A DNA stretch of 64,000 bases from Psammoneis japonica (taxonomy: Eukaryota): NCBI GenBank assembly GCA_008632985.1, contig QPGO01000069.1, positions 248,001 through 312,000 of the forward strand, in the 5' to 3' direction. The notes beneath the pieces are model-generated. The model was not told where the DNA came from. It worked only from the letters and a program-made list of their open reading frames with translations, and made no database searches. This document shows positions 9,215 through 61,700 of this stretch, in pieces (position 1 is the first letter of the stretch; the number at the start of each line of letters is the position of its first letter). A program made the translations under genes and the position numbers.

Positions 9215-9282
<68 letters not shown>
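9215..9282. repeat. (TG)n microsatellite abutting the gap
   Basis: Perfect tg repeat. Confidence 0.97.
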
Positions 9283-9285
<3 letters not shown>

Positions 9286-15245: not shown

Positions 15246-15372
15246 GGCAAAAGCCACTTGTCAGTTGTGACAGTGGCTCCGTCAAATGGCGCATGTTTTG
15301 CAACACATGAGCAAAAGCCACTTGTCAGTTGTGACAGCGGCTCTGTCAAACAATGCATGTCAGCAGCACATG
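15242..15372. repeat. Tandem duplication, ~64-bp unit
   Basis: catg(g/a)gcaaaagccacttgtcagttgtgacag occurs at 15242 and 15306. Confidence 0.85.
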
Positions 15373-17078
15373 CAGGGAAAGATTTGCTTCAAACCCAAAA
15401 CAGGGAGAAATGCTGGTTGTGCATGCCTGGGTGGTCTGACACAGCAGGATGGCACACTCTCAGAGCACGCACCCCCAAGGAAGGTTTTTGCATCCAAAGT
15501 CAATTGAAAACAGCTTTTCAACTCTTCAAAATTTCACCCAAGTGTGCATCCAAACAAGGACCTGCATGGGGAGCTTCTCAGCTGGGGAGGAGCAGGGGAG
15601 GTTTTCCAGTTTTTGAAAGAGAAAACCCATCAGTGCATGCCGGGAGGTCTGTGAACTCTGAAACACTTTGAGCCTTGTTGCACCCTGTGCATTCTTGTCT
15701 GCTCCAGAGAAAAGCCTGCCATGGCACAGCTTGTCATGCGCTGTTCTGACTTTTTGTCTGTCACACAACTTTTTCTTTGCTGTGTTGTGTTGTTGTCTCT
15801 CTCTTTGCACAGAGAGAAAAGTGTTGTTTGTGACAATGGTGGGTCAGCATCTTGTCTGTGCTTGCAGCATCAAGTGGAAGAGTGCAGTGGCTCAACACAG
15901 AGGTTTTCAAGAAGCAGTGGATTTTTTGCCTGGCTTTGTGAGAAAAATGCACTCCAGAAGCCCCCCCCCCCATCAAGACCATCCAAGAAGGAAGTGCTGA
16001 AGAAAAGAAAAAAAGAAAAGAAAAAAAGCCATGCTTGTGCATGGGTGAGCTGCTCAGAGTGTGCAGAAGAGCGATGCTGTGTGTGTGACAGTGTGGGGTG
16101 TGCCAATGCCGCTTCTCTTCTCCAGCCACCATGGCTTGAAGACTGTCCGCAGCTCCAGAACTGAGCAGCAGCAAAGGGGGCAGGAGAGAGACATGTGCTG
16201 TTTCAAGCATGATTTTCATGCTGGCACTCATGCTCCAGGGGGTTGACCACTCAGGAAAGGCCAGTTGAAAAATGCATTTTTGATGGAGCTGGTGCAAGTG
16301 TGAGCCGCTCTCTTCACAAATGGCCACAGCATCACATTGACGTGCTGACAATGCCAAAAGCACAAAATGCAGAGCACCACCAACTTTGAGTCAAGTTCCC
16401 CAGCAACATTGACTGTGCAACACAAAAACAGCCAACCAAAGGTGCTTGTTGGTGGGAGGCAGGACAAGTCAGCAGGGTCATGAGCTGACAAGGGCAGCCC
16501 CAATTGTGGGCACATTCCAAACATGATTTTGCATTGATCGATTCAAGAATCAGACACAAGGAGTTTCTTGATGTGTTTCAGCTCCTGACAATGCAAAGTG
16601 TGCCAGCAGCCTTGAAATGTGCAGAGAATGAAATGACTGGGGTTCTTGCTGGGAAACACGCAATGAGGAAGATGGAGAACATCAGAAGGAAACAGGCTGT
16701 CAGATGGCGGTTTAGATCCAGGCTCCTTGAAAATCAGTTCCTTGAATTTGGTTAGAGATGCCATTGCGTGCGGGCATTCATCGAGATCACGTTGCATGTT
16801 AGAAGAGAAAAGACTTGAGCTCCTCTTGAATTGTCCAAAGTTTCTGACGTCGGTCACCGCTACAATGAATCTACGGTAGGAGTTGATTGCGACATTGCAA
16901 TGTTTCTTCATTCTTTGCGGCACCAATTTCGAGAGTCGCTACTCTAGGTCGCTGACAAGCTGCTTATGATATATGTATGGTTAAAATTCACGGGCTAAGA
17001 CCGCGAGTCGGCTTACACTTGCCATACGGCTTAGATTAAACGGGCTAAACAACGAAAAAAGAGAATCACCACTAGGAA

Positions 17079-38211: not shown

Positions 38212-39524
38212 TTTTCCCACAGAGAGAAGCCGCTAAAGAATGGAGCAAGTAATAGAGAATGGATTTATCACCAAGGACTGTTTTCTCTACAATGTCAAGT
38301 GACGAGCAATACAGGAGACGCCGATTGCGGCCATCATCTTGTGTGTCATGTTTCATGCGATGTTCGTCGCGATCGCGATAATGCAATGTAGGATACTGCA
38401 ACACGTGGAAGGCAGACAGACAGACAGACAGAGAGGGCGGGTTCGTTGCGTGCGAAGCACGCACGCCATCCCATGCCCGCCACAGCACACGCAAGCCAAT
38501 GGAGATTGATTACATTGAGCATGTTGTGTGTCAGCAAGCTCTCTTCAACAGCATGGCACATTACATGGATGGGATGCAGTGGCTGCGATGAGGAAATCAG
38601 AAGAAGATCCAATGGTGCCTGGTGCCCAGCACCGCTGCCACAAATGACACACAAAACTGACCTTGACAGATGCGCCTCTGCAGCAGCAAGAGAGTGTGGT
38701 GAAGCACCCAGTGCAAGAAAATTTCTGCAGGCCACGTCGTGTGCTCAAACTCACATGCTGCTCCAATCCAGCATTAATTTTGAGAATTGAACCACCTTGC
38801 AGCTGAAACTGTGACACTTTTGCTCCTGATCATGGCTGACAAGGAGCCAGCACGAAAAAATGCAAAACAGCGGAGGATTTTCTGAAGACAGTGCAGCATC
38901 CTTGCCAAGACACAAGCACTGTGCTGGGTGCCTGCTCATTACAGACAAATTGGTCCCATCCTGGTTTGAACAATTTGTTGGAATTGGTTTTCCTGAGTCT
39001 TTCTTTGGCTGCTCTTCAAACAGCACAATGGTTGGCACAAAGTTCCCCCCACCTTGGCAGCACTCAGTGCCCCAGCTTTTCTTGCTTGGACACAACAGAT
39101 TTGGCATTGTTCAATGAAAAAAATGGCAATTTTGTTGTGCTGGGAGAAGATTCAGCCACACACAAAAATTGATCATGCAAGCAGTGCCAGAGATCTGCCA
39201 GCTTCTTCTTTGTGGTCTGGGGTGGTTGCTGCAGGCACAAAAGGCGGGCGCTGCGGCTTGTGCCTGCCTGAGTTTTTTGTGCACTCATTTTTTTTTTGCA
39301 TTCACTTTGTTGTCTACATTGTCACCTGACAACTGCAACATTTCCAACGCAGCTCAGCTTCACCTCCATTTCTCCAGCACTTTCCAGCAAACCTCCAATG
39401 CATGTTTCATGTGCATTGGAACCCACACCACGACTCAATGCATTTTTAATTCTCTTGTTTTGCCAATTGGTCTCAAATTTTCTGGAACTTTCAACAGCCG
39501 ATGACATCAGCTGCACTCACAACC

Positions 39525-39685
39525 ATTGAAAATCTGTTTTTGATTTTTCAGCTCAGAAAAACAGCCTGCTGCACTGATGAGCGAAAGCAACAAAAGCTCA
39601 CATCATTGAGCTTTGCATGCCAGGCAACTCATTTGACAGGATTGCTGTCATGCCAAGAGCTGATTGTGCATTGGACAACCCCAAC
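39525..39685 (+). repeat. Dispersed repeat, second copy at ~48835-48990
   Basis: Shared blocks ttgaaaatc..., gcactgatgagc.aaag, aaagctcacatcat, ccaggcaactc, ggattgctgt, ctgattgt.cattg.acaaccc. Confidence 0.75.
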
Positions 39686-39824
39686 AGAGTTCATGTTTGA
39701 CATCCCATTTTGTTTGTTTGACTTTGCTCATGACACCCAAAACTCCACATTGTGCTGCCCATTTGGCTCATTCTGCACCGGAGTGAAAATGTCACTCAAG
39801 AAGGTGTTTGTTGCCACCCAATTG

Positions 39825-40046
39825 GCTGTCTTTGCTTTGAAGTGAAAATGACAATGTGTTGTGGGGTTTGTCATTAACCGCCAGCTACTGACACAAAAAC
39901 TTTCTCAGAAAATCCCACAAACTTTCAGCCAACAAGCTGTCTTTGCTTTGAAGTGAAAATGACAATGTGTTGTGGGGTTTGCCATCAACCGCCAGCCACT
40001 GACACAAAAACTTTCTCAGAAAATCTCACAAACTTTCAGCCAACAA
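39825..40046. repeat. Tandem duplication, 111-bp unit x2
   Basis: gctgtctttgctttgaagtgaaaatgacaatgtgttgtggggtttg starts at 39825 and 39936. Confidence 0.92.
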
Positions 40047-40877
40047 CCAACCAAAAGCAAAATGAGATGGGCACATGACTCTTTTTGGACAGCAAGGCTG
40101 CAAATCATGGTGCATGGCAGAAGTCAAGAATCAGCTGCACAATTGAGATGGCTGTGCTGCAATTTGTTTGTTGTGGCGCCAATGGATTGTGCAAATTTAG
40201 TTTGGGAGCCTTTGCTTGATTTCTGTTGAAATGAAAGAGAAAAAGTTGAGCAGTGGAAAGTTGTTGGCCCATTCTCAATGTCTTTTTTGGTCAAAAAGAT
40301 CTCACAACAACTGCTCCATTGGATCTTCTCCATGTTCCGTGAAGTCTGTGTGTTGTTGTTTTTGTGCTGCAAGTCATTGTCTTGGGGTGCCCTTTGCTTT
40401 GTCTTTGTGCAATGGTCTTCAAAATTTTTTGTTTCACCCACATCTTGTTGCTGGTCAATTTTTGACATCTTTTGGTCAAAAACTCTCTGGTGCAACAGTT
40501 GTGCCATTGGATCCTTCACAACAAAGCACAGCCTGTCTTGTTCTTGCTCTTGCAAAGGGAGGCTGCGCCCAAGATGCACTGTGCTCCATCTTTCTGTCAT
40601 GCTGGTCATCCACATTTTTGTTTCACCCACATTTTTTAGTGTCTTAGCAACACCATCAAATTTGCAACAGCCGTGCACCATTGAATCCTTTGCAACAAGT
40701 GCAGTCTGTCTTTTTGTTGCTGTTGCAAATCAAGGCATCATGTCAAACACCTTCGTGCGCATTGGAAATTGGAACCCACACCACGACTCAACGCGTTTTT
40801 ACTCTTTTTTTTTCTTGGAACTTCACAGGAACTTTCAACAGCCGATGACGCCAGCTGCACTCACAATCCTTTGTTGG

Positions 40878-41861
40878 ATGGATGCGAACACCAACAAAAA
40901 CACAAAAGAAGCAACGGCACCAACCATGACAAGAACGTCACAAAATCAACAAGGACAACAGCAACAACTGCTAGTGGATGAAGCCGAGGCACGGGCGTTT
41001 TATCGAGAGTTTTTGACGCTCTCTTCCAAGCCACGACTCGTCATGGTCATTGCGCGAAAAAAGTACGACGACACCAACACACTTTCCACCTCCACCCAAA
41101 TCTTGGAACGAACCATTCTCCGCTTTGACAAGAAACACAGTGAAGACGATTTTATTCGTTTTATTCGCCGAGTAGGTCTTCTCGTCCAGGCCGACTTTTA
41201 CCGCGATCGTCGAGACGATAGTGTTCCGATTGCCCTCGAGTGGGTCGTGATGTATGTCACTGCCTTTCCATTGGACGAAGAAGATGCGACCGACGCCTTT
41301 ATCCAAACCATCATGAAGCGTCGACGCAACTTTCGACGGGCCATCGCCAATGAAAAGAATAAGGATCAGTTGCCCGTCTTGTCGGACATTGCCAGCATAC
41401 TAACGACGTGTCTCCACAATAGCAAGTGCCCCGAATGCCGCCGCCTGTTGAAATTGGACGTCGACACAAAGGATCCTGCACTACTAGAGGATTTTTATCA
41501 AGTATTGCAAGGCTTTGCAGTTGTGGTGGCTATGGAAACGCGGGGTGGATATCACGTGGTAATTGAACGAAACCGAGATTGTCGGCCCTTGTACGAGTTT
41601 GTCAAAGCCGCCCAGGAAGGTGTCCCTCACAAAGAGCATTGGATTACGCTGGAAGATAATGATGGACCTATGATAGCTATTCCTGGAACAAATCAGGGTG
41701 GATTTATGGTTCGAATCGCCACCGAGCAATGGAGGCAGGCGCTGGGAACAGCTCTCGTCTCCCAAGAAGGATGTCCTCTTAGAAGAAGGGACAGATCTAC
41801 GTGTAGGCACTTTTTGGGTAATGCCAAGCATAAGCAAAGCTGTCACGACCATTACTGTTAA
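40878..41861 (+). CDS. Intronless orphan with archaeo-eukaryotic primase (AEP)-like motifs; start codon uncertain (40878 or 40926)
   Basis: Normal Tyr/TA usage from ~40970 onward. Motifs IARKKY, LKLDVDTKD (hhhDhD), METRGGYHVV (T.xGxH), IPGTNQGGF. Confidence 0.6.
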   Translation: MDANTNKNTKEATAPTMTRTSQNQQGQQQQLLVDEAEARAFYREFLTLSSKPRLVMVIARKKYDDTNTLSTSTQILERTILRFDKKHSEDDFIRFIRRVGLLVQADFYRDRRDDSVPIALEWVVMYVTAFPLDEEDATDAFIQTIMKRRRNFRRAIANEKNKDQLPVLSDIASILTTCLHNSKCPECRRLLKLDVDTKDPALLEDFYQVLQGFAVVVAMETRGGYHVVIERNRDCRPLYEFVKAAQEGVPHKEHWITLEDNDGPMIAIPGTNQGGFMVRIATEQWRQALGTALVSQEGCPLRRRDRSTCRHFLGNAKHKQSCHDHYC

Positions 41862-42215
41862 TTAAGAGACCTACAATGACGTCTACGCTATGTACAGTAA
41901 AAAGGAAAGACTACGAGTCGAAGACGACCTTGTGATGCAGCTCCCTAACCTACCCGGATGTGGACTCTCAAAACCTTTCGCAAGTGGATCTTTCCAAATC
42001 TGGCAATGAACTTTAGTTTCTTCCCGATGGGAGGGGTTCGCATGCCACAAAACTCCTTTCAAGGAACGAACGAACGAAGGAACGCACGCACGCAAGATGG
42101 TCAAGACGGTGATTTCGGTCGATCCTAAAGTGGAGCCGTGGAAGCAAAAGAAGACTCCGCTCCCACAATCGCGGGCACCCGGATGTTCCTCCCGTCGCGA
42201 CGGTGAACTCAGAAC

Positions 42216-42439
42216 CGAGTAAATCTAGCTGCCGAAGGCTCAGCCACTCACAGTCTTAGTACGATAGCGCGAATACAACCAATAAGATGCTTCTAGGCCT
42301 GTTACAACTACAACAGATGCAACAAGTGAAAACCATTCTGTGGTCATCGGCATTTTGGTCCGCACACCAGTCACAGTTTCTCCACAGCACCTCCTGCTAG
42401 AGCACACTAGACAGTCCCTGATACATCGGATTTCACTCG
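42216..42439 (-). repeat. 3' LTR (224 bp) of the copia element; PPT GAGGGGA on the minus strand at 42441-42447
   Basis: cgagtaaatctagctgccg...gatttcactcg; direct repeat of 48489-48711. Confidence 0.92.
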
Positions 42440-42624
42440 GTCCCCTCGAAATGTGCCTGACTCGTAAGGCACAATTCGAACCAATGCTGCATCAGCAGTC
42501 TAACTCAAACATCTTGACTCATCAATCGACGTAAAAACCCTTGCCAGGGAAAAGCCGCCAATCCTCTGTGCATGGTGCAAACCCTCACTGGGGAAGAAAC
42601 TCACCACCGCTTCACGTGTCCATC

Positions 42625-45600
42625 TCAATGCGTGAACTTGTCTAACAGAAAATTCCGTCTGATGGACGACATGACCTTCGTGAACAGATTGCCAAGGTTT
42701 GTCTCTGTTCCCTCCTTTGCAATCCCAACAGTCCCCGCAGCAACAGCTTCGCGGTTGCGGTGACACGCAATGGAGTGATGCTTCTTCTTGAGTGTAGACT
42801 CAGGAATGGAGCAATTCTTGTAGACGGCCTCATTGTCACAGAAGACATTTGTTGGCCCTTCAATCGGCACTCCAAACATTCGAAGCTTGCATTGCAGGCC
42901 CTCCATGAGCTCAATGGCATTCTTGAGTGCAACAATCTCAGCCCCAAATGTGCTGGCCTCCACGGTGTTCTGATGCTTCGAGTGCCACACGATGGGTGCC
43001 CGGTTGACAAACATCAAGACACCTGCATGGCTGCGACGATCGGCAACATTTCCGGCATGGTCAGCATCCACAAAACAATGTGTCGATGCCACATCACCTC
43101 GAGCTGGTGGTGCATTTGTCGGAATGGCTTCTCTTGCATCTCGGTGGAAGTCGCGCCAGTCGCACTTCACGAATCGCGATTCATCGATCTTGGGATGAGC
43201 CGGATCAAATGCTGCTTGGCACTTTGGAACCTGTTTGGGGTGTGCAAAGATGTGCAACACCTGTTCCAGATGACCAATGCAAGGAAGAGCGAGGTGAGCA
43301 GACATTGACGAAACCTCCAAATGGGTGTCCACTCTGCCGAGTTCCACAGCCCAAACCAGTGCGCCAATCAGCTCTTGACAGCAGTGAAGTCCTTCAGCGT
43401 CCAACTCGCCAGTGGTGTCTAACTCGGGTTTGCATCCACTGCTCAATGGGGTTGTTGCCTTGCCAGGCAGATGTTTCCCCTCCTTGCCAAGCCTGTCCTC
43501 TACGTTTTGGACAGCGGACTTGCAGTGCTTCTCTGCAGACATTGCCCAACAGGCAGTCCCATTGGCCAAAGTCATCTTGGAAAGCGCAGCACCGAGATGA
43601 GTTTCCGGCTCGGCTGCCTTGTCACCCTTGAGCTTGAACTTGGACCTGATGCCATCCATCGTCTTCATGGGTTCGTGACTGATCGACAGCACGTCGTCCA
43701 CACAAACTAAAATGCATTCGTAGCACTCGAATCCATCGGGTTTCACCGCAGGTCTCATCCATGCATCCGGATCGGCCTTGCTTGGTTTGCACCCTAGATC
43801 ATAAAGCGTCTCCACTGGGAATGCCCTGAACACTGCTCCGGAGCTCTTCAATCCGTGTGGAGCCCTGACCACAATCATGATGCAACCTTCATCCTGCCAA
43901 ACTCGGAACCGGCTCTGGTCCAAATCTTCTCCCTGCAAGGGGCAGCAAGGCAGGCGTTCTGGATGTCACGTGCGAAGACTTGCAAGTCATTGAGCACAGC
44001 AAGCATCAGTGCAATCCTCACCAAATCTCAAGAGACGACAGAGGAGCAAGTGATGTGTGCGGGGGTTTCAGCAGTGTGGCCTCCAGCCACCATGCGAGCT
44101 TTGCGGCGGAAGTTTTCTCCCAACTTGATGTCAAAAATCATGTGACACTTCACTTCCTGGAAACCAGGCACCATGTCCTTAAGCTCCCCTTCATGCTTGT
44201 CAAAAGCAACCCGTGCATTCTTCATCTCCATGCAAATGGCGTCCCACCACAGGGTGTTGCCATTTGCGCGATCGATCTGGATCGCCTCCTCGACACTCTT
44301 TGGGATCCGCATGCCAAATTTGTGTGTTCGTAGCCAACACTTCGACTTGACCTTCGCAATGGAACACTTGCTGGTTTTCATGACATGAGGAACCCACCAA
44401 GCAAACGCTGGCTCACTCGAGATCTTGCGCTGAATGGCAAACTCGGCAACTTGGACTGGGAAGCTCTCCTTCGCAATCTTCAGGTCGATCCAAGTCGCAC
44501 TGCCATCCTTCCATTGGAACAAAAGTTCCCATCCTTTGGCAGTCTTGCGCCTCTTCCGAACGCCTTGCTCGGTCTCAAAGAACTCAGATTCTGGAACGTC
44601 CCCGTTGGTGCGGCAATCAACGATCTCATCAAATGAGACATGCCGGTTTCCGTCCTCGTCGATCTGAGCAAACACATTCATGGCGATGGAGTTAGCAGAG
44701 AGCGCAGCATGGTGCCCATCAGGGCACTCTACCTCATGCATCCTTGCATCAAGGATGGGATTGTCATTGGCTGTTCCTGTCGGAATGCCATTGGCATCTC
44801 TCAACCTCTTCGTGACATGAGCAAACTCAGGTCCATCATCATCTTGTGGAAGCGCAACTTCCATGTTAATGTGTCCCCAGTCCGCCGCCTCCGGTGAGGC
44901 TTCCTCGTTTTTCTTGTCGTCATCGTCATTTGCTGCCTCCTCTGAGGACATGACACAATCCCACTCATCGAGGAATTCATCATCGTATCCAAGGCAGTCC
45001 TTCCAGTCTTTGGGACTGATCTGCGATCCTCGTCGTCGGGGAAGTCTTGCTCCTTCAACCGTCGCTTGATCTCCTCGTCAAAATTGTCAAACTTTGCCTT
45101 TTTCTCTTGAGCAGCGGCTTCCAAATTGGTGACTTGTTGAACAGAAGTTCTGAAGTGACACTGCCTGTCTGTGTCAAGACGTGGTGCGACATGAGACTCC
45201 CTGTCCTGTGAGATGCACCAAGCCACCTGCCGAGCTTCTCGTCCCCTAAACCGGCATTCTCCCTGTGCCAGACCCAATCATAAAATCCAAAGTCAAGGTG
45301 CTCCAAGATGTCCACGGTCTCTCCGAGAACGTTCTCCAGTGGCACTCCAGCATCCAAATGATGTGCTCTGAGGAACGTGTGAGACATGGTCTCACATGTC
45401 CATGTAAATCCGCAGTCCCACAGTGCCACGGTGCTTGCTTCTTGACCATGATGCGGAACCACTTACGTCTGACCTCGCGCACAACCCCTTCTGCAGGATT
45501 CTGGTTGTGTCGATTGGGTTCGATGACACGACAATCTATGCCCTCCTTGCGCACGGTCTTCATGAACTCCGTGCCAGGTTTCGTTTGCTCCTTAGATCCA

Positions 45601-45990
45601 TCCATCAGGAGTTTCTCTGGCACGCCAAATTCCTGGCAAAACATCTTGAGAGCCTTGCCAGCCTTGCTCTTTTTGTCCATGGGATAAATCGCAGCGAAGC
45701 ATTGCTTGTTTGTGAAGATCTGAGCATGTCGATTGCCCTCCAACAAAACCACCTTGCCATCAACCATGTTGGTTGCCCATTCACCCCGTAACCTGGGCTT
45801 CGTGAACATCCGATCGGCCCGATGGCATCGACCCATTGGCATCAACGCTGACCTGATGAGCTTTTGCGTGGTCTTCTTGAGCATGCTGGCTGCTTGCTTG
45901 AGTCCTGTGCACCATCGTTCACTTGAGTCAGCAGCCGACACATCACTGTGTCTCTCCTCAGACATGAATGTCTTCAGGAGTGCCAAGTCT
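42625..45990 (-). pseudogene. Copia pol (integrase-RT-RNase H), frameshifted and hypermutated
   Basis: ORF fragments 45246-45986, 45055-45462, 44028-44951 and 42625-43938 carry copia motifs. The catalytic YVDD reads CVDD. Confidence 0.92.
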
Positions 45991-46767
45991 TCAGGTCCTT
46001 CGCCGATCGTTTCCGTGGCGGAGATCTAGGCTGTTGGCTCTGATTCCACATTGACGGCAGCTGTGAGCCTTGATTGGACTTGATCGACTCCATGAATGAA
46101 TTGCTCATCACAGCAGTCCCCGGATTGAGGGTCACTGTGGGCAGGATCAGCTTTGAACTCGTGTGTCAGATTGGTGTGGATCGTCGCAATTGACCGAACT
46201 AGCTCCATTTCCTCCTCCGCAGATCGTCGAGTTCCAACAGATTTGAACTTGACGGTCTGTGGATCCCAAGGTTGTTGGGAGGTCATCTGGATCTTGGGGC
46301 ATTCGTGCAGTTCCTGCTCTGCAGGAGCACGAGTTGCCGCAACAACATTGGTCCCCACAGCTTCAAGTGGCATCATGAAAGACTTGTCCTCCGTAAGGAT
46401 GTGCAGTGGTGAATCGGAGCAGGGGTTGTCCTGAACCTTAACACCAAAGTGCCACAGCTAGTTTGGGTTAACCAGCGAGTGCTCCATGGACTCCGGCATC
46501 CACAAGCCCTCGTGGAAGACCAGAACAAAAGTTGCTCCCGATGTCGGTGACGTCCACGCCGTGGCTGCCAAGACAATTGGGGCACTCTTGATGGACTCGC
46601 ATCCCTCGTTAAAAGGAGACACGCCTTGTTGAGGTAACGACCTCACAGATGCGTTTGTCGCAGGCACGTGGACACTGCTCCTTTGATTGACACGGCTGTC
46701 CCCCGCCCCATTGTGGCAACCACAACAAGAAGTTTATGATGCAACAAAGCAGGGTCCAGCTTGGCAG

Positions 46768-48198
46768 TCATTTCTGCTTTCCTCGGCGCTTTTCGCTGCG
46801 ACCACCGAATGCGTCTCCGGCATTGTCTCCGTCTCTGCCACCAACCCTTGATTCATCATCACCAGAATCGGCGCTGGCATCAGTGTTCAGGGTGGAGATT
46901 TTGCGGTTCGCTTCTTTAAGCTGCGACAACAGCTTCCGATTCTTCTTCTTGAGTGACTTGACGGATGCAGCACGGCGTTTGGTTGGTTTAGGTTGTTTGG
47001 CAATGCCCAGACGCACGCGCTCGTCGACAACCTTCTGTTTGTCCCCCTTGCTCAACTGGTGCCAATTTTTGTGGCACCCAGTGCCAATGGATCCATCCTC
47101 GTCACAAATGGCACCACCCTCTTTTCCTCCTCCAGAGGCAACTGCGGCAATCGCACGACAATGCGCAATCGTCTCTGGAAGGGTGGCGACTTTGGCAGCA
47201 AGATGATTGGCCGCCGTGGTGAACGTGATGCCTCCTCCAAACTCATTCTGTGCCTTCAAGGTCTCAACTGCCGCCTGCAGTGATTGGTGCTGCGTCTTCT
47301 CAAAAAGGATCCGTAATTTCTGGGCCTCCGTTTTCGGTTCGTCGTTTTCCTCAAAAATGTTGAACATTTCTTGGAGCTTGTTTGCCAACAAATGATTCAA
47401 ACAGCATGGCACGCTCACTCTTGCAATGGAGGGCATTCTCCATGCGCTCAGCTTCAGAGATGCGGCGGGAGGTGTTCCCTTCTCCCTGGTGATGGTCACA
47501 CAACGCCCTAAAGTCAACTCGTCCATTCTGTTGTTCTTGTGGTCTTTCAACCATTGCTCACTGGGTGTGCCCGTGGCAAGGGACTCGATGAGCAAATGAA
47601 CCGTACGAGTGTCAGCCTCGAAAGCTGGGCCTTGGAGGGGTGCACATGCAGTGCACTTCTGGACAAAAGTGTTGTGGCCTTGAGGTTTGGGTGCATCGTT
47701 TTGACGAATGCAATGCACTGGCAGCACGCCAGAGACTCCTGGCACAATGCCAAGCATGTTCATCAAACCAGTGCTCCACTTGACCCAATCCTTTTCGCTC
47801 TCCAACATCCCGGGTGATGCCTCTTCACTGAGAGAGTCAGCAGTGGTCTTGGTCTGGGAATGGATCTCGGCACGACTGAGTGCCATCTGGAGAGCAGCAC
47901 GGAAAGTTGCCTGATCAAGCCCATCCAGAGTGGGGTTCTCGCTCACACGACCAAAGTCCTGCACCCAATGGATGAGAGCTTTGAGTCGATGACTGCGGGC
48001 CAAACCAAAATGAATGCGCCCTTCAGCAACCGTCCTCCCAGCGCATGATGACGCAAGAGAATCGATGTCCTCTTCCTTGAGGTCTTCTAAATCGTCAAAA
48101 GACGCAAAGTCCGCCATGAGCGAGACTCGTTGAGCTGGATCAACAAATCCGATCCATTCGAGTGCTGTCTCGATGGGATCCGGAGGAGCAGCCGCCAT
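46768..48198 (-). pseudogene. Copia gag-like ORF (CoDi type), degenerate
   Basis: IHFGLARSHRLKALIHWVQDF, GVSG.P, APLQGPAFEAD resemble diatom copia gag. The 476-aa ORF contains no Tyr. Confidence 0.8.
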
Positions 48199-48474
48199 GG
48201 TGGCACCTGTGCCAGCAGGAAAACAGAGTCATGTGAGAGATCATAATTTAAAAAGGATGTCTCAGTCTGTGTTGACGACAACACATGGCCGTTGGAAGCA
48301 TGGAGACTGGCCATGTCTCCTCACTGCTCGTGCACCCACTGATGCCAGGCGATGACAATCATCATGCACCCTTTGATCGACCGGCGTTCGTCATCACAAC
48401 CCTGCCACATTGGTGCGATCATCTCTTCACAGTTGTTCAATGCTTTTCGTCAAACTAAACCTGAGTCAACGACT

Positions 48475-48485
48475 TGGCTCTGACA
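48475..48485 (-). other. Primer-binding site resembling the tRNA-iMet complement (TGTCAGAGCCA versus canonical TATCAGAGCCA)
   Basis: Lies 3 nt inside the 5' LTR and matches the TGGTATCAGAGC family except for a TA>TG change and the missing TGG. Confidence 0.6.
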
Positions 48486-48488
48486 AAG

Positions 48489-48711
48489 CGAGTAAATCTA
48501 GCTGCCGAACAGGCTCAGCCACTCACAGTCTTAGTGCGACAGTGCAAATGCAACCAACAAGATGCTTCCAGGCCTGTTGCAACTGCAACAGATGCAACAA
48601 GTGAAAACCATTCTGTGGTCATCGGCATTTTGGTCCGCACACCAGTCACAGTTTCTCCACAGCACCTCCCAGAGCACACTGGACAGTCCCTGACACATCG
48701 GATTTCACTCG
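48489..48711 (-). repeat. 5' LTR (223 bp) of the copia element
   Basis: Direct repeat of 42216-42439. Confidence 0.92.
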
Positions 48712-50479
48712 GAACAAAGGAGACGCTTTTCGGGTGGAGTGCGTGGACTGGACTGGTGGCCAAATCAAGAACAACGACAGCTCGGACAATGTCAAAAACA
48801 TCAATTTGAGCCAGGTCCACTGCCTTTCAGGTCCGATTGAAAATCCATTTTCGATTTTTTTTCTTGGAAAAAACAGACTGTGGCACTGATGAGCAAAAGT
48901 GAAAGCTCACATCATCAAGCTTTGCCCAGGCAACTCTTTCAATGGGATTGCTGTTGCACTGAGGACTGATTGTACATTGAACAACCCTGAAAACAGTGCA
49001 TGGAATTTTGATTGTGACAACAGCCAGTGCGCCCACTCAAATTGTGCCCACAAGTGGTGACCGAACTTCAGCAGCAGCACATTCTGTGTCGTTCGCACAT
49101 GTGCAAGGGCAACGGCAGAGACAGCACCTGCTTGCTGGGGCATCTGAACAGTGCAAGCTAGACAACAATTGTCAATGTGCTGCAACAAGATGCAGCTTCC
49201 AGCTTTCCAGAACATCATTGCTTGAGTCACATGCCACTCGCATGATTGCCAAGTCAGGACTTGCACAAAGAGCCATGAGCTGAGCAAATCAGCCTTTCCC
49301 ATCTCAGCGGATGACCGCTTCATCCCCAAGCATGCACAAATCAATCCAAAGCTTGGCTTCAGCAGCAATCTCAAGGATGATGCTAAAGGAAAAGAGCTTG
49401 CTGCTCAAATGGATGAGTTGGTTGACACCTTTCAACAGAATGCAGCCAACCTCATGCATCAAGCAGCTGTGTGTGAATTGGAGGTTGCGAGCCAGCTGAG
49501 ATTGGAAAAATTTGTCAACGCAAGTGTCACACTCTTCATGTTTTGCACATGCCATGTGATTGAACATGAAAAGAAAGGCACTGTGCCAACCTCACCCCAC
49601 GATGCCTTGGTGGCATGATTTTCACACCAAGTTTCTGGACAGACTTGGTGTCAACTGTTGCACTGACCACCTTGGCACTGCTGACAACAAGGTGATCCAA
49701 GAAACAGCTCATCAGCTGGAACCTCAACCAAGCACTGCCAGAAAACTCCCTGCAGGGCAGTGACCAAGTCTCCCAGGACTCTCAAAGCTCCTCCCAGGAA
49801 ACTCACCTTGACACTCAACCTGACAATGACACAGAAGCCCATTTGCACCAAAACAGTGAGAAGCAGACAGCTGCAGCAATCACCCAAGAAATGGACAAAT
49901 TCTTTCAAGATGTGTTGTTGACCTCCAAGCATCCTTCCATGCAAAAGAGCAGCAGAACTCTGCTTGTGTCAAGACAGCTGCCAGGTGGAAGAAGCACAAA
50001 ATGCTGAAAGTGGCAGATGCTGCCACCGCCACCCTTGAAGATGAGCCTGTGGTGCCATCCCCTGCCATGGAACAGGTGGCACACAAGGCTCTGGAGAAAG
50101 CAGGGCCAAAGCACTTCAAGCAACAGCTGAAAAAAAATGAACAGAAAAGACTCCAAGAGTTGCCAGGAAATCCAAAAACTGGTGATGTTCACACAAAAGA
50201 CATTGCAACCAATGCTGCACAAGAAAAAGGACAAGGGAAATTTAAACAACCTCCCAAAGAAGCAAAAGCATGCCCCTGCAAATCAGAAAAGAAGAGGAGC
50301 ACATCAAGGAGGACAGCGCAACGATGGGCAAAGAGGAACAAAGAACACAAAAAAGCAATGCAGGTGTGGCACCACCACAAAACAGCTTTGCATCCCATCT
50401 TGATGGCCATTCAAGAAACAGCCAACTGCTGCAGACAAGCGCACGGCTTTGCATTGGACTCAGAAAAGCCACCAAAGGA

Positions 50480-50920
50480 GATCACCACCACTGCACTGGG
50501 CACTGTGAATTCCACCAAATGTTTTGCCTGCCCAAAGAACCTGGCCTTCCACAACCCATGCACAGGGCTGCAACCACCCCCAGGCCTTGGTTCATTGCCA
50601 GGTTTTGGCCATGAGTTCTGCATTGAGTCAGCAAAACCCTTCTCTCACAACAGACAATGCACGCAGCAATTGTGACAGTCCATGCACCTGAAACACTTCA
50701 TCAACAACTCGGACTTAGACCTTGGTGAAGACTGCAATCCCAACCTCTGTGTCCCATCCAGCTTCAACCCTCCTCCAATCGAGACTGGATCCATTGAACT
50801 TTGCATGATGAACTTTGTAAATGCAGCAGACTGTGGCAGCCAACAAGCCTCCAAGAGAAGATCTCACTTCAATCTCTCCCCAAGACAATGTCAAGCCCTC
50901 CGCAATCTGCAAAAGGATCT
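50480..50920 (+). mobile_element. Truncated Penelope-like retroelement fragment (region N-terminal to the RT), degenerate
   Basis: PKNLAFHN.C..LQPPPGLGSL.G.G..FCIE, CNPNLCVPSSFNPPP (cf. YNPKLYIxSxWxPP) and NLSPRQCQALRNL. The match ends before the RT core. Confidence 0.55.
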
Positions 50921-51375
50921 GAATGCGATGAGGGATGAGGCGAGTGCTCTCAAAATGATGAAGTGCCGCATCGTACAGCATTCACCGCCCACAACACACC
51001 ACCAAAGCAATGGGACCAGAAAATGAGGTCTCGGGGGAGAAAGTTGAATCAATCGTGTTAGCGTAAAATCTACTGGCGCTCGGTATTCAGTTTCCACGAT
51101 CGAAACGCATCAACCATCGTTCTTAAATCCATGTCACAAGAGACAAATTTTTACGCCAATCAGAATCCTCAATTGCCACACTCAAAACAAAAAGAGGCAT
51201 CATATTTTATCGTGGTCACCGACGACAATTTCATTTTTATTGATGTTGAACTACAACCTTTAAATGTTTCGAACATTTAATGACAAGTATGTGGTTTTGG
51301 CTGTGTTTCATGTGTTCCAAATTCTTGTTTTTCGTCGTTTTCCCCACAACATTCTTTTTGAGACTACGAGTCATC

Positions 51376-54744: not shown

Positions 54745-55690
54745 AGTTCACAAGGACACCATGCGCGAAGTGAAGCAAGAAGTAGCCGATCGAAAAGCTA
54801 TAGCGCACGGGGAGACCCTTAAAACGATCCTCAGGACCCCACCTGACCTCCAGGCCAGAGCTGTCAAGCGCAGCACCAAGACTGGCGCGTGGCTTTCAGC
54901 ACACCCTTCGACACTGAATGGCGCGGAACTCTCGTGCCAAGAGTTCCATGACGCGCTCTTCCTGCGGCACAGCCACACTCCACCCAACCTCCCGCAGCAC
55001 TGCAATGGATGTGGATGCAAGTTTACGATGAACCACGCCCTTCAGTGCAAGAAGGGCAGCCCAGTCATCTCACAACACGATGAAGTGTCCGTGACAACCT
55101 GGGTGGCCCAGTGGGCAAGGCTTGCAAACCTTCCTGTGCACGCGACAAACCCCTGATCAACCCCACCGGTTGCAGCACAGGAAGCTCAAGCACCCCCACC
55201 AGTTCTCCAGGAAACACTGACTCCAACAAGTCTGAGGAGATGGCAATCGCGGGGACCTTCTCTGCATGCAATTTTGGGACAGAAGGACAGACATGGTGAT
55301 GGACATTGCATCCCTGCCCTGACCGGACGCAAAGTCACACCCATCCAAAACACCAGAAGAAGTTCTGGCAAGCCACAAATGTGAAAAAAAGTGTGAGTGC
55401 CTCAAGCCCTGTCTTGAGCAGCACCATCATTTTGCGCCCTTCGCAGTGTCATGTGACGGACTTTTCAGCAAGGAAGCCAAGGCAATGCTCTGCAAGATGG
55501 CATCGATGCCATCAGACAAATGGCAAAAGCCACACTCTGAAGCATGCGGCCACATCAATGCAAGAATGAGCATTGCCACAGTCCGGGCAACCCACTGTTG
55601 CCTCAGGGGATCCCATGTTCCCGCCTCTCAGATCAGCTCCAGACGACCCCAGTGGGAAGATGGCGCCGGTCTGTCCCCACACAGACACCA
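54745..55690 (+). mobile_element. 3' fragment of an RLE-type (CRE-like) non-LTR retrotransposon, degenerate
   Basis: TGAWLS..PSTLNG.ELS.QEF.DAL.LR, C.GCG.KF...HAL.CKKG zinc knuckle, RGDL-like endonuclease region, DGL..KEAK, ARMSIA.VRATH.CLRGS. Confidence 0.85.
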
Positions 55691-55799
55691 AAGGACCCCA
55701 ATCCAATCAACCCCCACCCTTCCTGACAGCACACCAACTGACTGTCCACCAACACCACCAATGTCATGCCCAGAAGATGACAAAAACCTGCCACCACAC

Positions 55800-58700
55800 T
55801 GAATGCGGCGCCACAATCAACTCAAATGTCGCGTGCACAGCCTGCGATTTGCGTGCAACAACTGCCCCTCACTCACATGACTGCATTGATGCTGCATTTT
55901 CTGTTGTCATGACAAGGAAGTGAGCCATGTTGCATCACTTTTTCTGCTCATGGAAGAGGGCAGATGGATTTGAAATGCTTGGAAGATTCAAAAAGCAGCA
56001 CAAGGAATCAACACCAAGTTTGTGCAGAAAGAGAGCAAGTCAACCCAAGTGTTCTTTGCAATCTGGTTGTCCCCAACTTCATTGCCTTGGGAACTTTTTT
56101 GCTTTCACTGCAGCTGACAAAAATCAGTTGTTTGGGTGCTGGTGCATCAGCACAGCAGAAACTCTGACAGGGGGCTGGCCCACACACTCCCAGCACACCG
56201 GTGCTGTTGATGCAGTTTGGGAGGGGATGTCCAGGACAGGCCAGAACTGGTGTGCCATCATCAGATGAAGCCTGCCCAAAACAACTGGTTGTTGCTCTTG
56301 CAACTTGCACACAGCATTCCAGGCAGCTGGGTTGGCACTGTCCTTCAATGCAGGGTTGCAGCATGACAGCCATCTGCACAGATGGTGAGCAGAGTTTGTC
56401 AAGTGGTCTTCCACTTGACTGGTGAGTGTGATTGTTCTTTGCTTGCATTCATCTCTTCATTTGCAGATCACTCAAATTTGGTCTTTCACATCCTGTCAAC
56501 ATGCCTGTTGTCTCATTTGTTGATTGTCATGCCCATGCATGGCTGTGCTGCATTTGTCCCAAAGATCTTGCCACTTCACCCAAACACACTGGTCCATCCT
56601 TTGTGTGTGGTGACTGCAAAGCTGAGGCCACAGGCCGTGTCATCAAAAATGACACTGCACCTGCAAGCTGAGGTGTTGCCAACTGACTTTTTCTTGAGAG
56701 TCTGCAAACTTGGGCTGCATGAGAAGATGATGCCAGCACAAGTGCAGAATTTCATCACCCAAACACACCAGTCCATGGCAAATGCACCCCAGCTGCGCTC
56801 CTTTGTGTGTGGAGACTGCAGCAAAGCTGAGGCCACAGGCCAAGTCATTGGAAATGACACTGCACATGAAAGCTGAGGTGTCTCCAACTAACTTTTTTTT
56901 AGAGTCTGCAACCTTCTTGAGCTTCATGAGGAGAGGAGATGCTGGCATGAACGCAGAATTTCATCACATGGTTGCTGCTCTCCTGGGTGGCTGGGTGGCC
57001 AACAGAAGAGCAAGCTCTGAGTGGCAGCAGCATGTTGCACAGATCATCTCACACAACTCTTCTTGTGGTGGAGACCTTGGAGAGAGACAAACAGCACCAG
57101 CTGGAGTTGTGCATGCACTGGACCATGCCTGCCCCATCTGTTTGAAGGAGAACAGCAGAGTGCACAACAAGGCATGGGAGGGCAGTTTGAGGTGACAACA
57201 ACAATGCCATGGGCTGGCACAGCAAGGCTGTCAAAATGGCGATCATGATGACAAAGCACAGACCAGCCATTGGGTCTGCCACCACTGTGATGTTGTGGAA
57301 ACACCCTCTGCATCAGAAGAATCAGGATGAGCCATGAGGATTGTGCACTTTGTGCTGGCTGCTCTGCTTCTTGTGCATGCCACTCTTTTCATTTTGCCCT
57401 TGTTTGTCATCAGAGGTGGAGACAATTTAGCTGGGGCTCACTCAAATCATGTGGGTCAAATCTGATGTTTCCACACAGGTTTGACCTGAATTGTGGCCTG
57501 CTGGGTCATGGTTCATTGCAGTTTGGGTGAGCCACACTGGTGTGCCAAATTTTTCATGCAGCTGTGCCTGTCATTTCCTGTTGTCACACCACACAAATGA
57601 CAACCACACTCATGACATTGATGCATTGTTGCATTGCAGCAAACTTTCATTTCATGTTTTTGATGCGTGCTCCCATTTTTTAATGCATTTTCTCTGCCAG
57701 TGTTCAACCATCCAAATGTTGTTTCACATGGTGAATGTCTTTGCCAAAACAAATGTCATTGCGCTGCTGTCATTGATGCATCTGCAAACCACATTTCCCC
57801 TGTTAATTGATGTCATCATCATCCTCCATTGGCACTGCATTGTCCATCACTTGCTTCTTTTCTGTCAACACATTCCCAGAATTGCTTGGACCACAGTTCA
57901 CTGCATTGCTCTGCATCCTTGCTCATCCTCTTTGTGTGTGTCTCCTTTTCCAATTCTTGGCACCTGTCAGTCCTTGTTTGTTCCAACCTTGGCCACTCTT
58001 TTTTGCCTTTTGTCCTTTTCCAGTGCTGTGCTGCACTTCACTGTTGTGCGAGCCTCTGTTCCTGCAGCTTTTCCTTTGCTTTCCCATGCACATGCACCCA
58101 CTTTTTCCAGATGTTCTCCAACATCAGCAGACCAAATGCCTTGTCACTTCCCCATGCCAACTTGTTCAAGCAACACCTTGATTGGAGAGCCAATGTTTCT
58201 GCAATGTCTTCCCAATGACAATGGGCAGGAAGTGGCAGGTGCAGCAGCTGTGTGCCTCCATGGCATTCCTTCCCTCCAGCATGTCCTCCAAGGATGGCAT
58301 GTTTTCATTGTCATGATTCAGCCTGCCTGTTTGTCCACAAAACACATCAACGTGACCTGGGTCAGTGTTTGTTGTCTGTGCTGTTTGCAGTTTCCCCTGC
58401 AGCAATGCTTGCTGAAGAATTCCTTCTTGTTCTCCACAGGCATTGTTCCTCTTTCTTGTTGCTTGTCTTCTCACCTTGTCCTTTGACATGTTCCATGTCT
58501 GCGTCCTGTTTCTGTCCAGCATGTTTGGCTGGACAAAACAGTCTCAACCTCCCTTTCATTGCTGATGGTGTCTTGTGGCCTTGTTGTTCAGAAACTTGCG
58601 CCAATGGAAAAGCACATTCTTGTAGCCAGCAGCTCTCCATGTCCCTGTCATTCATTTTGTCATTGCACCCTTTTTTCTTTCACTTGCCACTCATTGTGTC

Positions 58701-61700
58701 TTCTCCTTCATGTTAAGAGCAGATGCAGACAGAGTCACATTCATCACGACTGACCCCCCGTTGGTTTCCTGCACCATCATCAACACGGGTGCCTCCATCT
58801 CTGTCTCTTGCACTCCCCCTGTCATGCGTGTTTGCTTTGCAGTCCATTGCATGCTGCTGTCAGTGAGCACAATGCAAGCTCTGTTGGCACTTTACACTGT
58901 TGCTTGCATCTTCTCTAACAGGGCTTTGGAGTGGCTGGTTTTGTTGTCTGACAGTTCCTGTGCACAGGGGCATGGTGCAGTTGTGTGTTTTGGTGGTTTC
59001 TGGAGAAGCAAGACTTTTGTTCTGGGATGCACTGCAATCACAGTGCCAGGTGCTGCAATTCTGCACATGTGCACCTGGCAGCCATGTGCTGGATCCTGCT
59101 GTCTTCTGCACCCCTTCTGCAATTTAAAATTCTGGCTAGCATTGTGGCTGGTGGCCTGTTTTTTTTTCAAAACCAAGCTCTGATGCACAGTTGATTGAAG
59201 ATTCAAACACCATGTCTGTCTTTCCATCACACGTCAGGTCACTGCACCCTTTTTTCATGCACAAATCTGTGGTTTGTTTGAGTCACGGTGAGGTGGCTGC
59301 TCCCAATTCATTCAGCTGGACTGCTGCTTTGATCCAGGGCATTTGACTTGCTTCATCACCCCATCTGGCAGTCTGGGGAAACTGACCCCTCTGTTGGAGT
59401 GATCTGAGTGTCAATGTCATGCTCACTTGTTGCTTTGCAGCTGACATCCTGCAAACCAGAAGTGTGCAAGAAGGTTGTCAGAGCAGTCAAGCATGCCATT
59501 AAATGAGTGTGATGTGCCTTGCACACAATCCACAAAACACTCCACATGAGTGTGACAAAGCCTCTCTGTCACAGCTGGACTGTGCTGGCCTGGGATCAGG
59601 CCCACAATCATCCAACCATTGACCATCTCTCAAGTCAAATCAAAGAACCCATTCTGTGGCACAACCACTCACACACTGGCTTTGCAAGGTTGGTGTCTTG
59701 GTGGAAGAATGATGCCAACTTCATGGCTTTGCACACAATGCCATTAGCATCCATTGCAAGTCCATGTCAATTTGGCTCAACATTGGCAACATGACCACGC
59801 AGCTCACCTGCATGAGGGGACCGCACACCCCATGCTTGTTCATGCCATGTGCAGGTGATTGCAGCCTTGACTGTTTGCACAAGTCCATGGTGTCCTTCTT
59901 GTCTGGGGCCAACTGCAACATGTTGCCCCTCAATCAAGTGGTGCACTCATCCTTCATGTGCTCTTTGCTGTCTTTGTGTTGTCCATGCAACACACAACAA
60001 ACTTTGCCTTGCCACAAGGTTTGGTCTCCATGATGATTTCCCGAAATTCCTTGGCTTTGTGTGCTCGCCAAGCACACTTGCCAATCTCATGTGGCAGACT
60101 GTTGTCACTGTGGATGGAGAAGTGCAGTGGTGGAGATGTGCTCATGCACTTGAGGACTCCACAGTCCCTTGGTTGCTTGAACCCAGACTGCAAGTGCTTC
60201 AAAAGTGCCAGTCTGGAAAGCCAACACATGATTGGGTTGAGGTTGTCAAGAATTGCTGGGGTGGGGAATGCCACATTGTGGCCATGATGGTCCTTTGCCT
60301 CATGATGGAGATTGTGGGGGACAAGCTGGAGGAGCCACATGCCATGGTCTGTCAATGCAGTGGACTGCTGAAAAGTGATTCCAACAAGTTTGAGTCTTCC
60401 ATTGTGGAGTGCCAGCATGCAAAGACATGCATGTTGGGTGGAGACCCTGTTTTTCACCTTGTCAATCTTGACTGAATGACATTGAAAGTGTTGGTGTTCA
60501 AGGACATTTTCCATCCTTGAAGAAGGAACCATGGTGGGATGTTGTCACCAGAGAGAAGATGGGAGAGCCAGATTTTCCATTGTTGCAGGATGATCCACCA
60601 ACATTGTGCAAGGGTGTGAAGCCAAGATTGCACACATGGAGGCCACAAGAAACCCCAATCACCAAAAAACTCACCATGTCACAAGACTGGGTGTGTGCCA
60701 TTCTTTCACATGACAAATGGAGAAAAGAGTTCATGGAGACAACAGTGCAGCCAAACTGATCAACATGATGAGTGGTCAATGGAAAGCAACCAAATGGCGC
60801 CAGCAAAACCCAGCTGTCTTGTTCCAACAAGTTGGGATGACTTGGCCTTTTGAAAACAGCACTGCTGTCAAAAACTCACTTTTCAAACCATTGGTGCCAG
60901 AGGTGCAGACAAACTGGAATGTTGTTCTGGCATGGATCCAGAAGCTTGTTGAGGAAACAATTGTTGAAGTTGCTGACATGGCCATTGCCACAACATTCAG
61001 GGGAACAAATTCTTTTCAGTTCCGCCATCAAGATGTGATCTCCATTGCAAGGCATCACATGATGAAGGCCACCTTTCACTTCAGTCACCTTTCCTTCACA
61101 GCCTGCATGCATTGAAATGACAAGCAAACATGACCTCTTTGCAATGAAAAGATTCTGACTGATGTGTGTCATGTCAAAGAATTCATTGTCTGAGTGCTTG
61201 TTTTTCACAATGCAGTGGGATTTGCAAATGCAGTTTTCCCTGTCATGGTGTGCAACTGCTTCCCCACTTCAATTGGCAAAGGCAGCACACAGGGTTTTCA
61301 TGATGATCTCCACTGTTTCTTCCACAATGCTGTTTTGCCTTGGCTCAGAGGGAAGCATCAGAAACATCCACTCCTTCATTGCCTTGCTGGTTTTGGTGAT
61401 GTTGGCCAGGTTGATGAAACAAAAGGGAATGAATCAAATGGTTGCCTTCAACTCCATCACAGATTGGTCACACCAAGATCTTTGAAGTTCAGAATGAGAG
61501 GGGTCCTCGCAGAACATGCAGCCAGTGTGGCACTCTCCCATTTGAGAGTGGCAGGAATGCCCCAGTTCCTTGATGCCTTGCACTGACAGAACCACACCAG
61601 CCATTGAGAAACACTGTTCACACCAGATCTTTCAGCTTGAGAGGAAAAATTGATGACAATGCAGATGAAATCATGGCGAAAGTTTCCTCTTCTCTTTTTG

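Follow-up and report, generated by a model that had tools for sequence, protein, structure and literature searches.

Depletion of TpA and loss of conserved tyrosines in a degenerate copia-type retrotransposon and neighbouring blocks of a diatom genome point to regional hypermutation

We examined a 64,000-nucleotide stretch of the genome of the diatom Psammoneis japonica (GenBank assembly GCA_008632985.1, contig QPGO01000069.1, positions 248,001 to 312,000 of the forward strand; hereafter the window), in which a minus-strand element at ~42.2-48.7 kb appears to be a degenerate long terminal repeat (LTR) retrotransposon of the Ty1/copia type. Two direct LTRs, ~92% identical to each other, flank the coding region, and no target-site duplication was recognisable by eye in the LTR alignment. 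The element carries at least four frameshifts, and its pol region, which matches residues 102-1423 of an intact relative of 1423 amino acids (aa), P0003, in colinear order, is split into five frame segments (Table 1). A protein search returned 120 related polyproteins, mostly ~1300-1450 aa long and 57-68% identical, all of which have the Pfam domain RVT_2 (PF07727) and one of which carries the name of the diatom Fragilaria crotonensis; the identity of the pol region to intact polyproteins of ~1400 aa is 50-68%. No protein relatives of more than 68% identity were found in the searches of the ‘longer’ and ‘near’ length classes, and a search of the representative library, which was not used further, gave relatives of at most 67% identity (~50% for full-length reverse transcriptase). 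In the colinear P0003, RVT_2 occupies residues 927-1133; the element's own open reading frames (ORFs) score under the Pfam thresholds, and Pfam reported no integrase family for either P0003 or the element at E <= 0.01. The order of integrase before reverse transcriptase in the element is assumed from its colinearity with the polyproteins. Further copies of the element were found in the window by neither tblastn nor blastn.

The conserved tyrosines (Tyr) of this element are largely gone. We aligned 60 relatives to the element and considered the 549 columns with at least 80% agreement, 26 of which are Tyr. The element retains Tyr at 2 of these 26 columns and has Cys at 11, His at 9 and Phe at 4; every Cys codon is TGY and every His codon is CAY. 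Conserved columns other than Tyr kept the consensus residue at 455 of 523 positions (Fisher p = 4e-18). Thus, a preliminary description of the element, which had proposed from its motifs that Tyr is systematically replaced by Cys or His, is borne out at 20 of the 26 columns, and the altered motifs that it listed are seen as such against the relatives' consensus (CVDD for YVDD, PHGLK for LYGLK, TCSSVVS, CQELIG, WHSK, CKLRMFG, IACH and KCW). Similarly, the counts that it gave, no Tyr in the gag ORF and three in the ORF for reverse transcriptase and RNase H, are reproduced (0 in 486 aa and 3 in 446 aa), with 0-1 in each of the ORFs designated PR, IN, IN2 and mid. Tyr makes up 0-0.7% of the element's ORFs versus a mean of 3.5% in 88 intact relatives, and the chance of finding zero Tyr in 486 aa at a frequency of 3.5% is 3e-8. 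Alignment of gag itself has little power: gag-related regions occur in 34 of 80 related loci, with just two conserved Tyr columns, at which the element has His and Met.

The substitutions at conserved columns are those expected if TA dinucleotides change to TG or CA. In a reversion test, a single TA>TG/CA change accounts for 38 of the 92 differing columns (20 TG and 18 CA), CG>TG/CA for 17, another single transition for 8 and something more for 29; among the 63 single-transition differences, the remainder beyond the 38 of TA type is nearly all of CpG type. The 17 CG>TG/CA columns indicate that a parallel decay of CpG to TpG or CpA has been at work on the element as well. The side effects predicted for TA loss, L>P/S, V>A and I>T/M, are all present, and most are assigned to TA>TG/CA. 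We counted L>P 3, L>S 2, V>A 4, I>T 3, I>M 1 and, in addition, T>A 5, and the reversion test attributes to TA>TG/CA all of the T>A (5/5), L>S (2/2) and I>M (1/1) changes, 3/4 of V>A, 2/3 of L>P and 2/3 of I>T, with the remaining V>A, L>P and I>T (one each) being ordinary single transitions. The T>A changes arise through a TA that spans two codons.

Loss of TA damages a protein by missense and makes no new stops, as had been suggested for this element. Both TAA and TAG contain TA and TGA can be reached only from TAA, and so TA>TG/CA never turns a sense codon into a stop. Indeed, only two in-frame stops occur at conserved columns, one by CG>TG and one by CAG>TAG, and neither by TA loss. Because no stops are made from sense codons, long ORFs are plentiful in TA-depleted DNA.

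The loss of Tyr is not a trait of the family. The ratio of observed to expected (O/E) TA is 0.16 in the element versus a mean of 0.70 (range 0.29-1.05) in 80 related loci from metagenomes. The possibility that intact relatives themselves carry Cys or His at the Tyr columns was examined in these loci, and 79 of the 80 keep their conserved Tyr at 0.57-1.00. A compositional habit of the family or the genome, such as avoidance of UpA or a codon preference with no targeted mutation, might be suspected since TA is under-represented everywhere, with an O/E of ~0.5 in the window's genes as well as the mean of 0.70 in the relatives. However, such a habit is scarcely credible as the cause: the residues lost are conserved ones with catalytic and structural roles, the relatives keep theirs, and the element's 3′ LTR has 13 TA where its 5′ LTR has 3.

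To polarise the change, we used two other copia families among the metagenome loci, one a trio (L052, L055 and L057) and the other a pair (L007 and L010) with L013 as the outgroup. Private TA>TG/CA changes outnumber the reverse by 25:1 in L057, 9:2 in L055, 19:2 in L007 and 20:1 in L010, summing to 73 forward and 6 reverse, and they make up half of the 50 private changes in L057 (25) and two thirds of the 30 in L010 (20). These counts, together with the Tyr carried by the relatives at the affected columns, agree with the preliminary claim that TA is ancestral, and they indicate that the direction of change is TA>TG/CA, that is, away from TpA and GC-ward. The trio forms a graded series in which L052 is intact, L055 is lightly mutated and L057 is heavily mutated by TA>TG/CA. 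The last of these (6429 nt) displays the full syndrome, with conserved Tyr kept at 4 of 28 columns, Cys or His at 23 and zero in-frame stops at conserved columns. L007 and L010, which come from different metagenome assemblies and are 98.3% identical over 6.5 kb, have each been mutated independently relative to L013; 46 of their 87 differences (53%) are TA-type, compared to 8-12% in near-identical pairs without the syndrome. One further locus, L073, has a CG O/E of 0.06 with a TA O/E of 0.38 and conserved Tyr kept at 14 of 18 columns, a case of strong CpG decay without much TA loss, and therefore the two processes can be uncoupled.

The depletion of TA is not confined to the element. On a map of the window in 500-bp bins, blocks with 0-2 TA per bin adjoin genes with 15-20 per bin, and the TA-depleted footprint covers about half of the window. 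In the five blocks (Table 1), TA O/E is 0-0.15 and CA/TG O/E is 1.5-2.2, compared to ~0.5 and ~1.1 in the adjoining genes; CG O/E is 0.03-0.7 in the blocks and ~1 in the adjoining genes, and block GC content is 0.46-0.53. The total of pyrimidine-purine dinucleotides is similar in blocks and genes (233-244 per kb), which fits a process made of transitions only, a comparison that discriminates weakly.

Table 1. Features of the element and of the TA-depleted blocks (positions are those of the window)
Feature	Positions	Strand	Remarks
3′ LTR	42216-42440	minus	225 nt; 13 TA, 9 CG; spared by hypermutation
5′ LTR	48489-48712	minus	224 nt; 3 TA, 7 CG; hypermutated
Putative primer-binding site	48477-48485	minus	TGCTCTGAC on the plus strand, TGTCAGAGC on the coding strand
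gag-like ORF	46768-48228	minus	486 aa from stop to stop; zero Tyr
First pol segment	45417-46622	minus	aligns to P0003 residues 102-498 with 50% identity
Two short pol segments in two other frames	45023-45423	minus	P0003 residues 494-590 and 585-627; frameshifts between
pol segment with N-terminal part of the RVT_2 reverse transcriptase region	43896-45026	minus	P0003 residues 626-1000
C-terminal part of reverse transcriptase and RNase H segment	42628-43887	minus	P0003 residues 1004-1423, 68% identity; CVDD for YVDD; 3 Tyr left
TA-depleted block	2750-4700		TA 4.1 per kb versus 36-47 in genes; overlaps host-gene-like fragments
TA-depleted block	6643-16700		with an N gap inside; ORFs >=130 aa lack Pfam domains
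TA-depleted block	38400-41000		part at ~3x single-copy depth in DNA run X1
TA-depleted, CG-lowered domain	42450-51050		element internal region, 5′ LTR and an older single-copy block (48721-51050)
TA-depleted block, the most extreme	54830-64000 (window end)		per kb: TA 1.9, CG 8.0, TG+CA 233
Host-type domain fragments (PSII_BNR/YCF48, PGP_phosphatase)	2839-3267, 3284-3940	minus, plus	at the edge of or inside block 2750-4700
N runs	6133-6642, 8995-9214		510 and 220 bases; at or inside a TA-poor block

The contents of the blocks other than the element are hard to name. The two long ones, 54830-64000 and 6643-16700, have 1.6-1.9 TA and 8-16 CG per kb, and Pfam found no domain in their ORFs of at least 130 aa; presumably, this is mobile or foreign DNA of some age that has mutated so far that it can no longer be recognised. 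Sixty ORFs of at least 130 aa that overlap the other blocks had zero Pfam matches to transposon or virus families. At the block at 2750-4700, we found partial matches to PSII_BNR/YCF48 (positions 134-219 of 303, E = 5e-16) and PGP_phosphatase (positions 74-129 of 168, E = 7e-10), which could be pieces of genes that were captured or duplicated, or else host genes on which the process has acted.

The edges of the blocks are sharp, and one of them lies where the 3′ LTR of the element meets its internal region. The two LTRs consequently offer a comparison within a single copy. TA differs at 10 of 13 sites, and always with TA in the 3′ LTR and TG or CA in the 5′ LTR, while CG differs at 2 of 9 sites and only ~1 in 200 of the other positions differs. 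The comparison of 10/13 with 2/9 shows that TA sites are lost faster than CpG sites. The edge of the domain does not track the ends of the element, with the 3′ LTR spared and the 5′ LTR mutated, and mutation appears to have been at least partly post-integration. Since the LTRs have the same sequence and yet one alone is mutated, a homology-guided mechanism is disfavoured, and an effect of chromatin domains would fit the pair better. Moreover, the block at 48932-50890 is at single-copy depth in X1, so that repetition is not needed for the signature.

The LTR comparison taken alone cannot be polarised, and could in principle be read the other way, with the 3′ LTR as the mutated copy and CpA/TpG changed to TpA as in fungal repeat-induced point mutation (RIP). 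RIP changes C to T mainly at CpA; it makes TpA, AT-rich DNA and many stops, and needs duplicated sequence. The likeness lies in a host process that makes transitions at one dinucleotide in mobile or foreign DNA, within bounded regions, and leaves a compositional scar. Unlike RIP, the process here destroys TpA, leaves GC at ~48-53%, creates no stops and has left its footprint in single-copy DNA. We give practically no weight to the RIP-like reading, because TA is nearly absent from the blocks and not in excess, and because the conserved Tyr columns and the polarised loci point the opposite way.

Loss of TA depends on the base that follows. Among 56 polarised events, the edited A was followed (position +1) by C in 59%, T in 29%, A in 9% and G in 4%, compared to 28/31/22/19% for C/T/A/G at unmutated TA sites (chi-square 30.6, p = 1e-6). 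The sites that survive tell the same story from the other side: YTAR makes up 57% of surviving TA sites in the window's blocks versus 16% in genes (p = 3e-24), with TTAA, CTAA and TTAG enriched 3.5- to 5-fold and ATAT, GTAT, ATAC and GTAC nearly absent. We scored TA survival against 74 unmutated relatives and obtained 0.02 for RTAY, 0.14 for sites with TAY on one strand and 0.43 for YTAR. A model with independent hazards on the two strands, in which TAY is hit ~4.6 times as often as TAR per strand, predicts 0.09 for the class with one TAY strand, and the survival classes fit such independent hazards. Tyr codons are TAY, the favoured motif, which is why Tyr has been hit so thoroughly; the stop contexts TAA and TAG (TAR) are relatively protected by the same preference for a pyrimidine at +1. 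The preference is clear only from polarised events and surviving sites. Among the 38 codon-inferred events, the flanking bases (one on each side) do not decide between a TG and a CA outcome.

The outcomes TG and CA correspond to change of the A on one or the other strand, and both strands are hit about equally, site by site, without long single-strand tracts. Neither a runs test nor a test of heterogeneity in 200-bp segments revealed clustering of TG versus CA in any block in excess of that in genes, although runs counted by hand in the set of 38 codon-inferred events gave z ~ -2, which we treat as marginal. This symmetry bears on an alternative in which the copies arrive already mutated, by editing before integration of either the element's RNA (ADAR-like) or its complementary DNA (in the manner of APOBEC3, on adenine). 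APOBEC3, which is like the process here in that a deaminase with a dinucleotide signature disables retroelements, deaminates cytosine on minus-strand complementary DNA before integration and is strongly strand-asymmetric, unlike the strand-symmetric and at least partly post-integration change of A:T pairs that we observe. ADAR resembles it in changing A to G with U or T preferred before the edited A, and favours G after it. Editing of the sense RNA would yield A>G on the coding strand alone, and hence Cys but never His, while T>C on the coding strand accounts for 18 of the 38 events, His requires the antisense change, and G is the rarest base at +1 (4%). Pre-integration editing also does not account for LTRs of one copy that differ from each other at 10 of 13 TA sites, all one way, for TG and CA outcomes that are equally common and interleaved (20 versus 18), or for TA-free blocks that include single-copy DNA and host-gene-like fragments. 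Support for this alternative comes from the sibling copies described below, which appear to share most TA losses, and from the preference of ADAR for a U before the edited A, which is stated in a preprint that also describes ADAR as an enzyme of animals that acts on RNA (bioRxiv 10.64898/2026.01.13.699255). According to that text, the signature arises in place in single-copy integrated DNA in the chlorarachniophyte Bigelowiella natans (bioRxiv 10.64898/2026.01.13.699255). We regard pre-integration editing as quite improbable.

Sibling copies of the element were sampled in DNA run X1, where the element has 20-45x single-copy depth and the high-depth unit stops at the LTR ends; runs X2 and X3 contributed almost nothing. 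Sites at which siblings differ with a share of at least 10% number 162, and we estimate from the relatives' TA density that ~260 TA sites have been lost in the element. At 40 of the 162 variable places, comprising 35 events, the window copy has TG or CA where other copies have CG in 16 events, and has TG where others have TA in only 1. The process also went on independently among copies: two double differences of CA versus TG separate the window copy from its siblings in conserved Thr codons, where the ancestral state would have been TA since only TA fits CA in one copy and TG in the other, and at position 43721 the siblings have Cys where the window copy still has Tyr. In X1, the segment at 38934-39867 is at ~3x single-copy depth and is an old block that still has a few copies, and at 42454-42695 several sibling contigs skip 24-115 nt just inside the 3′ LTR, so that the window copy differs from its siblings by small indels there.

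We also considered a sequencing or assembly artefact, for example systematic miscalls at modified bases, given that the blocks contain or border the N gaps at 6133-6642 and 8995-9214 and that the element has frameshifts. An artefact is very improbable. Contigs assembled from X1 match the TA-free flanks, with zero differing letters and 1 gap over 39996-42236 and zero differing letters and 7 gaps over 48932-50890, and the same signature is found in L057, L055, L007 and L010, which derive from other metagenome assemblies. The estimated size of the gaps suggests read-pair scaffolding and not a raw long-read consensus.

A process of this kind has been described. Two integrated-virus regions received 231 of the 302 nuclear de novo single-nucleotide mutations that arose in mutation-accumulation lines of B. 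natans; 230 of the 231 were A>G or T>C, each of these 230 at TpA, and the rate in the viral regions was ~1000x the genome background, with some lines only being affected (bioRxiv 10.64898/2026.01.13.699255). The preprint text also reports 124 clusters of TpA-poor, CpA+TpG-rich windows in the B. natans genome, with low-TpA coding sequences enriched for reverse transcriptase and DDE domains (bioRxiv 10.64898/2026.01.13.699255). The agreement with our observations extends to TpA>TpG/CpA change on both strands, to its confinement to foreign or mobile DNA and to the clusters that are poor in TpA and rich in CpA and TpG. The differences are that the host here is a diatom (a stramenopile) and not a chlorarachniophyte, and that the DNA hit is a family of LTR retrotransposons together with old repeats that cannot be identified, instead of giant-virus and virophage inserts. 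Depletion is deeper here, with a TA O/E of 0-0.15 compared to the Rho_TpA of 0.45 given in the preprint for a B. natans region of nucleocytoplasmic large DNA virus (NCLDV) origin, and CpG decay is co-located, a point that the preprint's main text does not discuss. The rate in B. natans was measured directly, while ours is a relative excess read from sequence (LTR TA sites at 10/13 versus ~1/200 for others).

We conclude that the pattern is probably the product of a host-driven, regional, DNA-level hypermutation of TpA to TpG or CpA (A:T>G:C at TpA), a statement that concerns the process only. The mutations would arise in place, after integration, in silenced chromatin, and by the same process that was measured in the B. 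natans lines. A candidate chemistry is that an adenine deaminase of the TadA/ADAT kind acts on DNA, with the resulting inosine then read as G, and here our confidence is lower: a TadA/ADAT-type DNA adenine deaminase is a serious candidate for the enzyme, with a likelihood that falls somewhat short of even. Mettrop et al. propose an ADAT2-like DNA adenine deaminase for B. natans, and the text of their preprint cites activity on DNA for engineered TadA and, as a report, for amphioxus ADAT2 (bioRxiv 10.64898/2026.01.13.699255). In the smallest native substrate of TadA, the sequence C-U-A-C-G-A places the target A in the context U-A-C (PMC6506237). TadA and ADAT deaminate the A after U33, and the U-A-C of TadA matches the order TAC > TAT >> TAA, TAG seen here, although the natural enzymes act on tRNA and not, as would be required for this element, on DNA.

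Several considerations weigh against this interpretation. Position 35 is G, A or C in the substrates of eukaryotic ADAT2/3, so that the preference for TAY fits bacterial TadA better than ADAT2/3. In addition, most TA losses look common to the siblings, given 162 variable places against ~260 losses, and this indirectly suggests that an already mutated ancestor then multiplied LTR to LTR, perhaps in trans. Shared losses are hard to square with a process that simply disables each copy at its own site, and would call for mobilisation in trans or some other route of spread; because many siblings seem to share the mutated state, the TA process is only a possible cause of the element's inactivation. 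X1 is possibly the source sample of the assembly, in which case the agreement of its contigs with the flanks is not independent. The link to methylation and heterochromatin, which comes solely from the co-located loss of CpG, is plausible, as copia elements of Phaeodactylum carry DNA methylation, H3K9me2/3 and H3K27me3 (PMC4504042). Finally, sequence alone cannot separate deamination of A from a T>C change on the opposite strand.

This last point leaves room for thymine as the chemical target, with the T of R-T-A oxidised by a TET/JBP-type enzyme to 5-hydroxymethyluracil (5hmU), which mispairs with G and gives T>C. The data are symmetric in this respect, since 5′-TAY-3′ with A changed is 5′-RTA-3′ with T changed on the other strand. 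In dinoflagellates, 5hmU replaces T preferentially at TpA. We nonetheless hold a thymine target to be improbable, as 5hmU opposite A is only weakly mutagenic and, in the text of their preprint, the B. natans authors favour deamination of adenine (bioRxiv 10.64898/2026.01.13.699255).

The CpG loss in the same blocks resembles the decay of CpG in methylated transposons, with CG>TG/CA at 17 of the 92 differing columns. Such decay cannot produce the loss of TA and is slower here (2/9 CG versus 10/13 TA sites in the LTR pair).

The TpA process is thus already known from B. natans, and what we describe is the footprint that it appears to have left in a diatom and in copia elements of the diatom type. 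The literature searched contained TpA-specific hypermutation in one 2026 preprint, on one chlorarachniophyte, and no diatom report. The main text of that preprint has no mention of diatoms, LTR elements or the +1 context (bioRxiv 10.64898/2026.01.13.699255), and a term search of Maumus et al. 2009 on the diatom CoDi elements (PMC2806351) gave no match for dinucleotide bias, hypermutation or deamination. The occurrence in diatoms and copia elements, the depth of depletion, the TAY motif and the overlap with CpG decay were all not found in the searched literature, and the preference for a pyrimidine at +1 appears to be a new detail.

That the signature occurs both in a diatom genome and in copia elements of diatom type sampled in several metagenomes suggests that the process is widespread in marine algae. 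Three features constrain its mechanism: the TAY motif with independent hazards on the strands, domain edges that lie off the element ends, and the co-location of CpG decay. We offer as a speculation, and a doubtful one, that diatoms and chlorarachniophytes share a genome defence in which a TadA/ADAT-derived deaminase edits double-stranded DNA at 5′-TAY-3′ in silenced, methylated domains. If so, mobile elements would be erased by missense, faster than by CpG decay and never by new stops, and an enzyme that naturally edits adenine in DNA, at a defined motif of three bases, would exist across the SAR (stramenopiles, alveolates and Rhizaria) supergroup. Some diatom species can be manipulated genetically, and candidate deaminases could be tested in them.

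The footprint also has consequences for annotation. The blocks lose all TAA and TAG stops and so acquire long spurious ORFs, while the protein-domain signal is lost as well; such regions will mislead gene and repeat annotation and inflate gene predictions. One example is an open frame of 543 aa at 40230-41861 on the plus strand, which passes from a TA-poor block into a normal gene region. The first part of this frame is open because TAA and TAG have been erased, and is probably non-coding.

The relatives are uninformative on the putative primer-binding site of the element. The sequence TGTCAGAGC is located 3 nt past the 5′ LTR (48485-48477). TATCAGAGC was found in 1 of 80 related loci and TGGTATCAGAGC in 0 of 80, and the loci are therefore silent on the ancestral form of the site; the canonical iMet-type motif was likewise found in 0 of the 80.

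The gene content of the window points to a diatom host. The host genes are long and intron-poor. The best named matches of an ABC transporter encoded in the window are from diatoms, with Thalassiosira first (63%), followed by Stephanodiscus, Cylindrotheca and Attheya.

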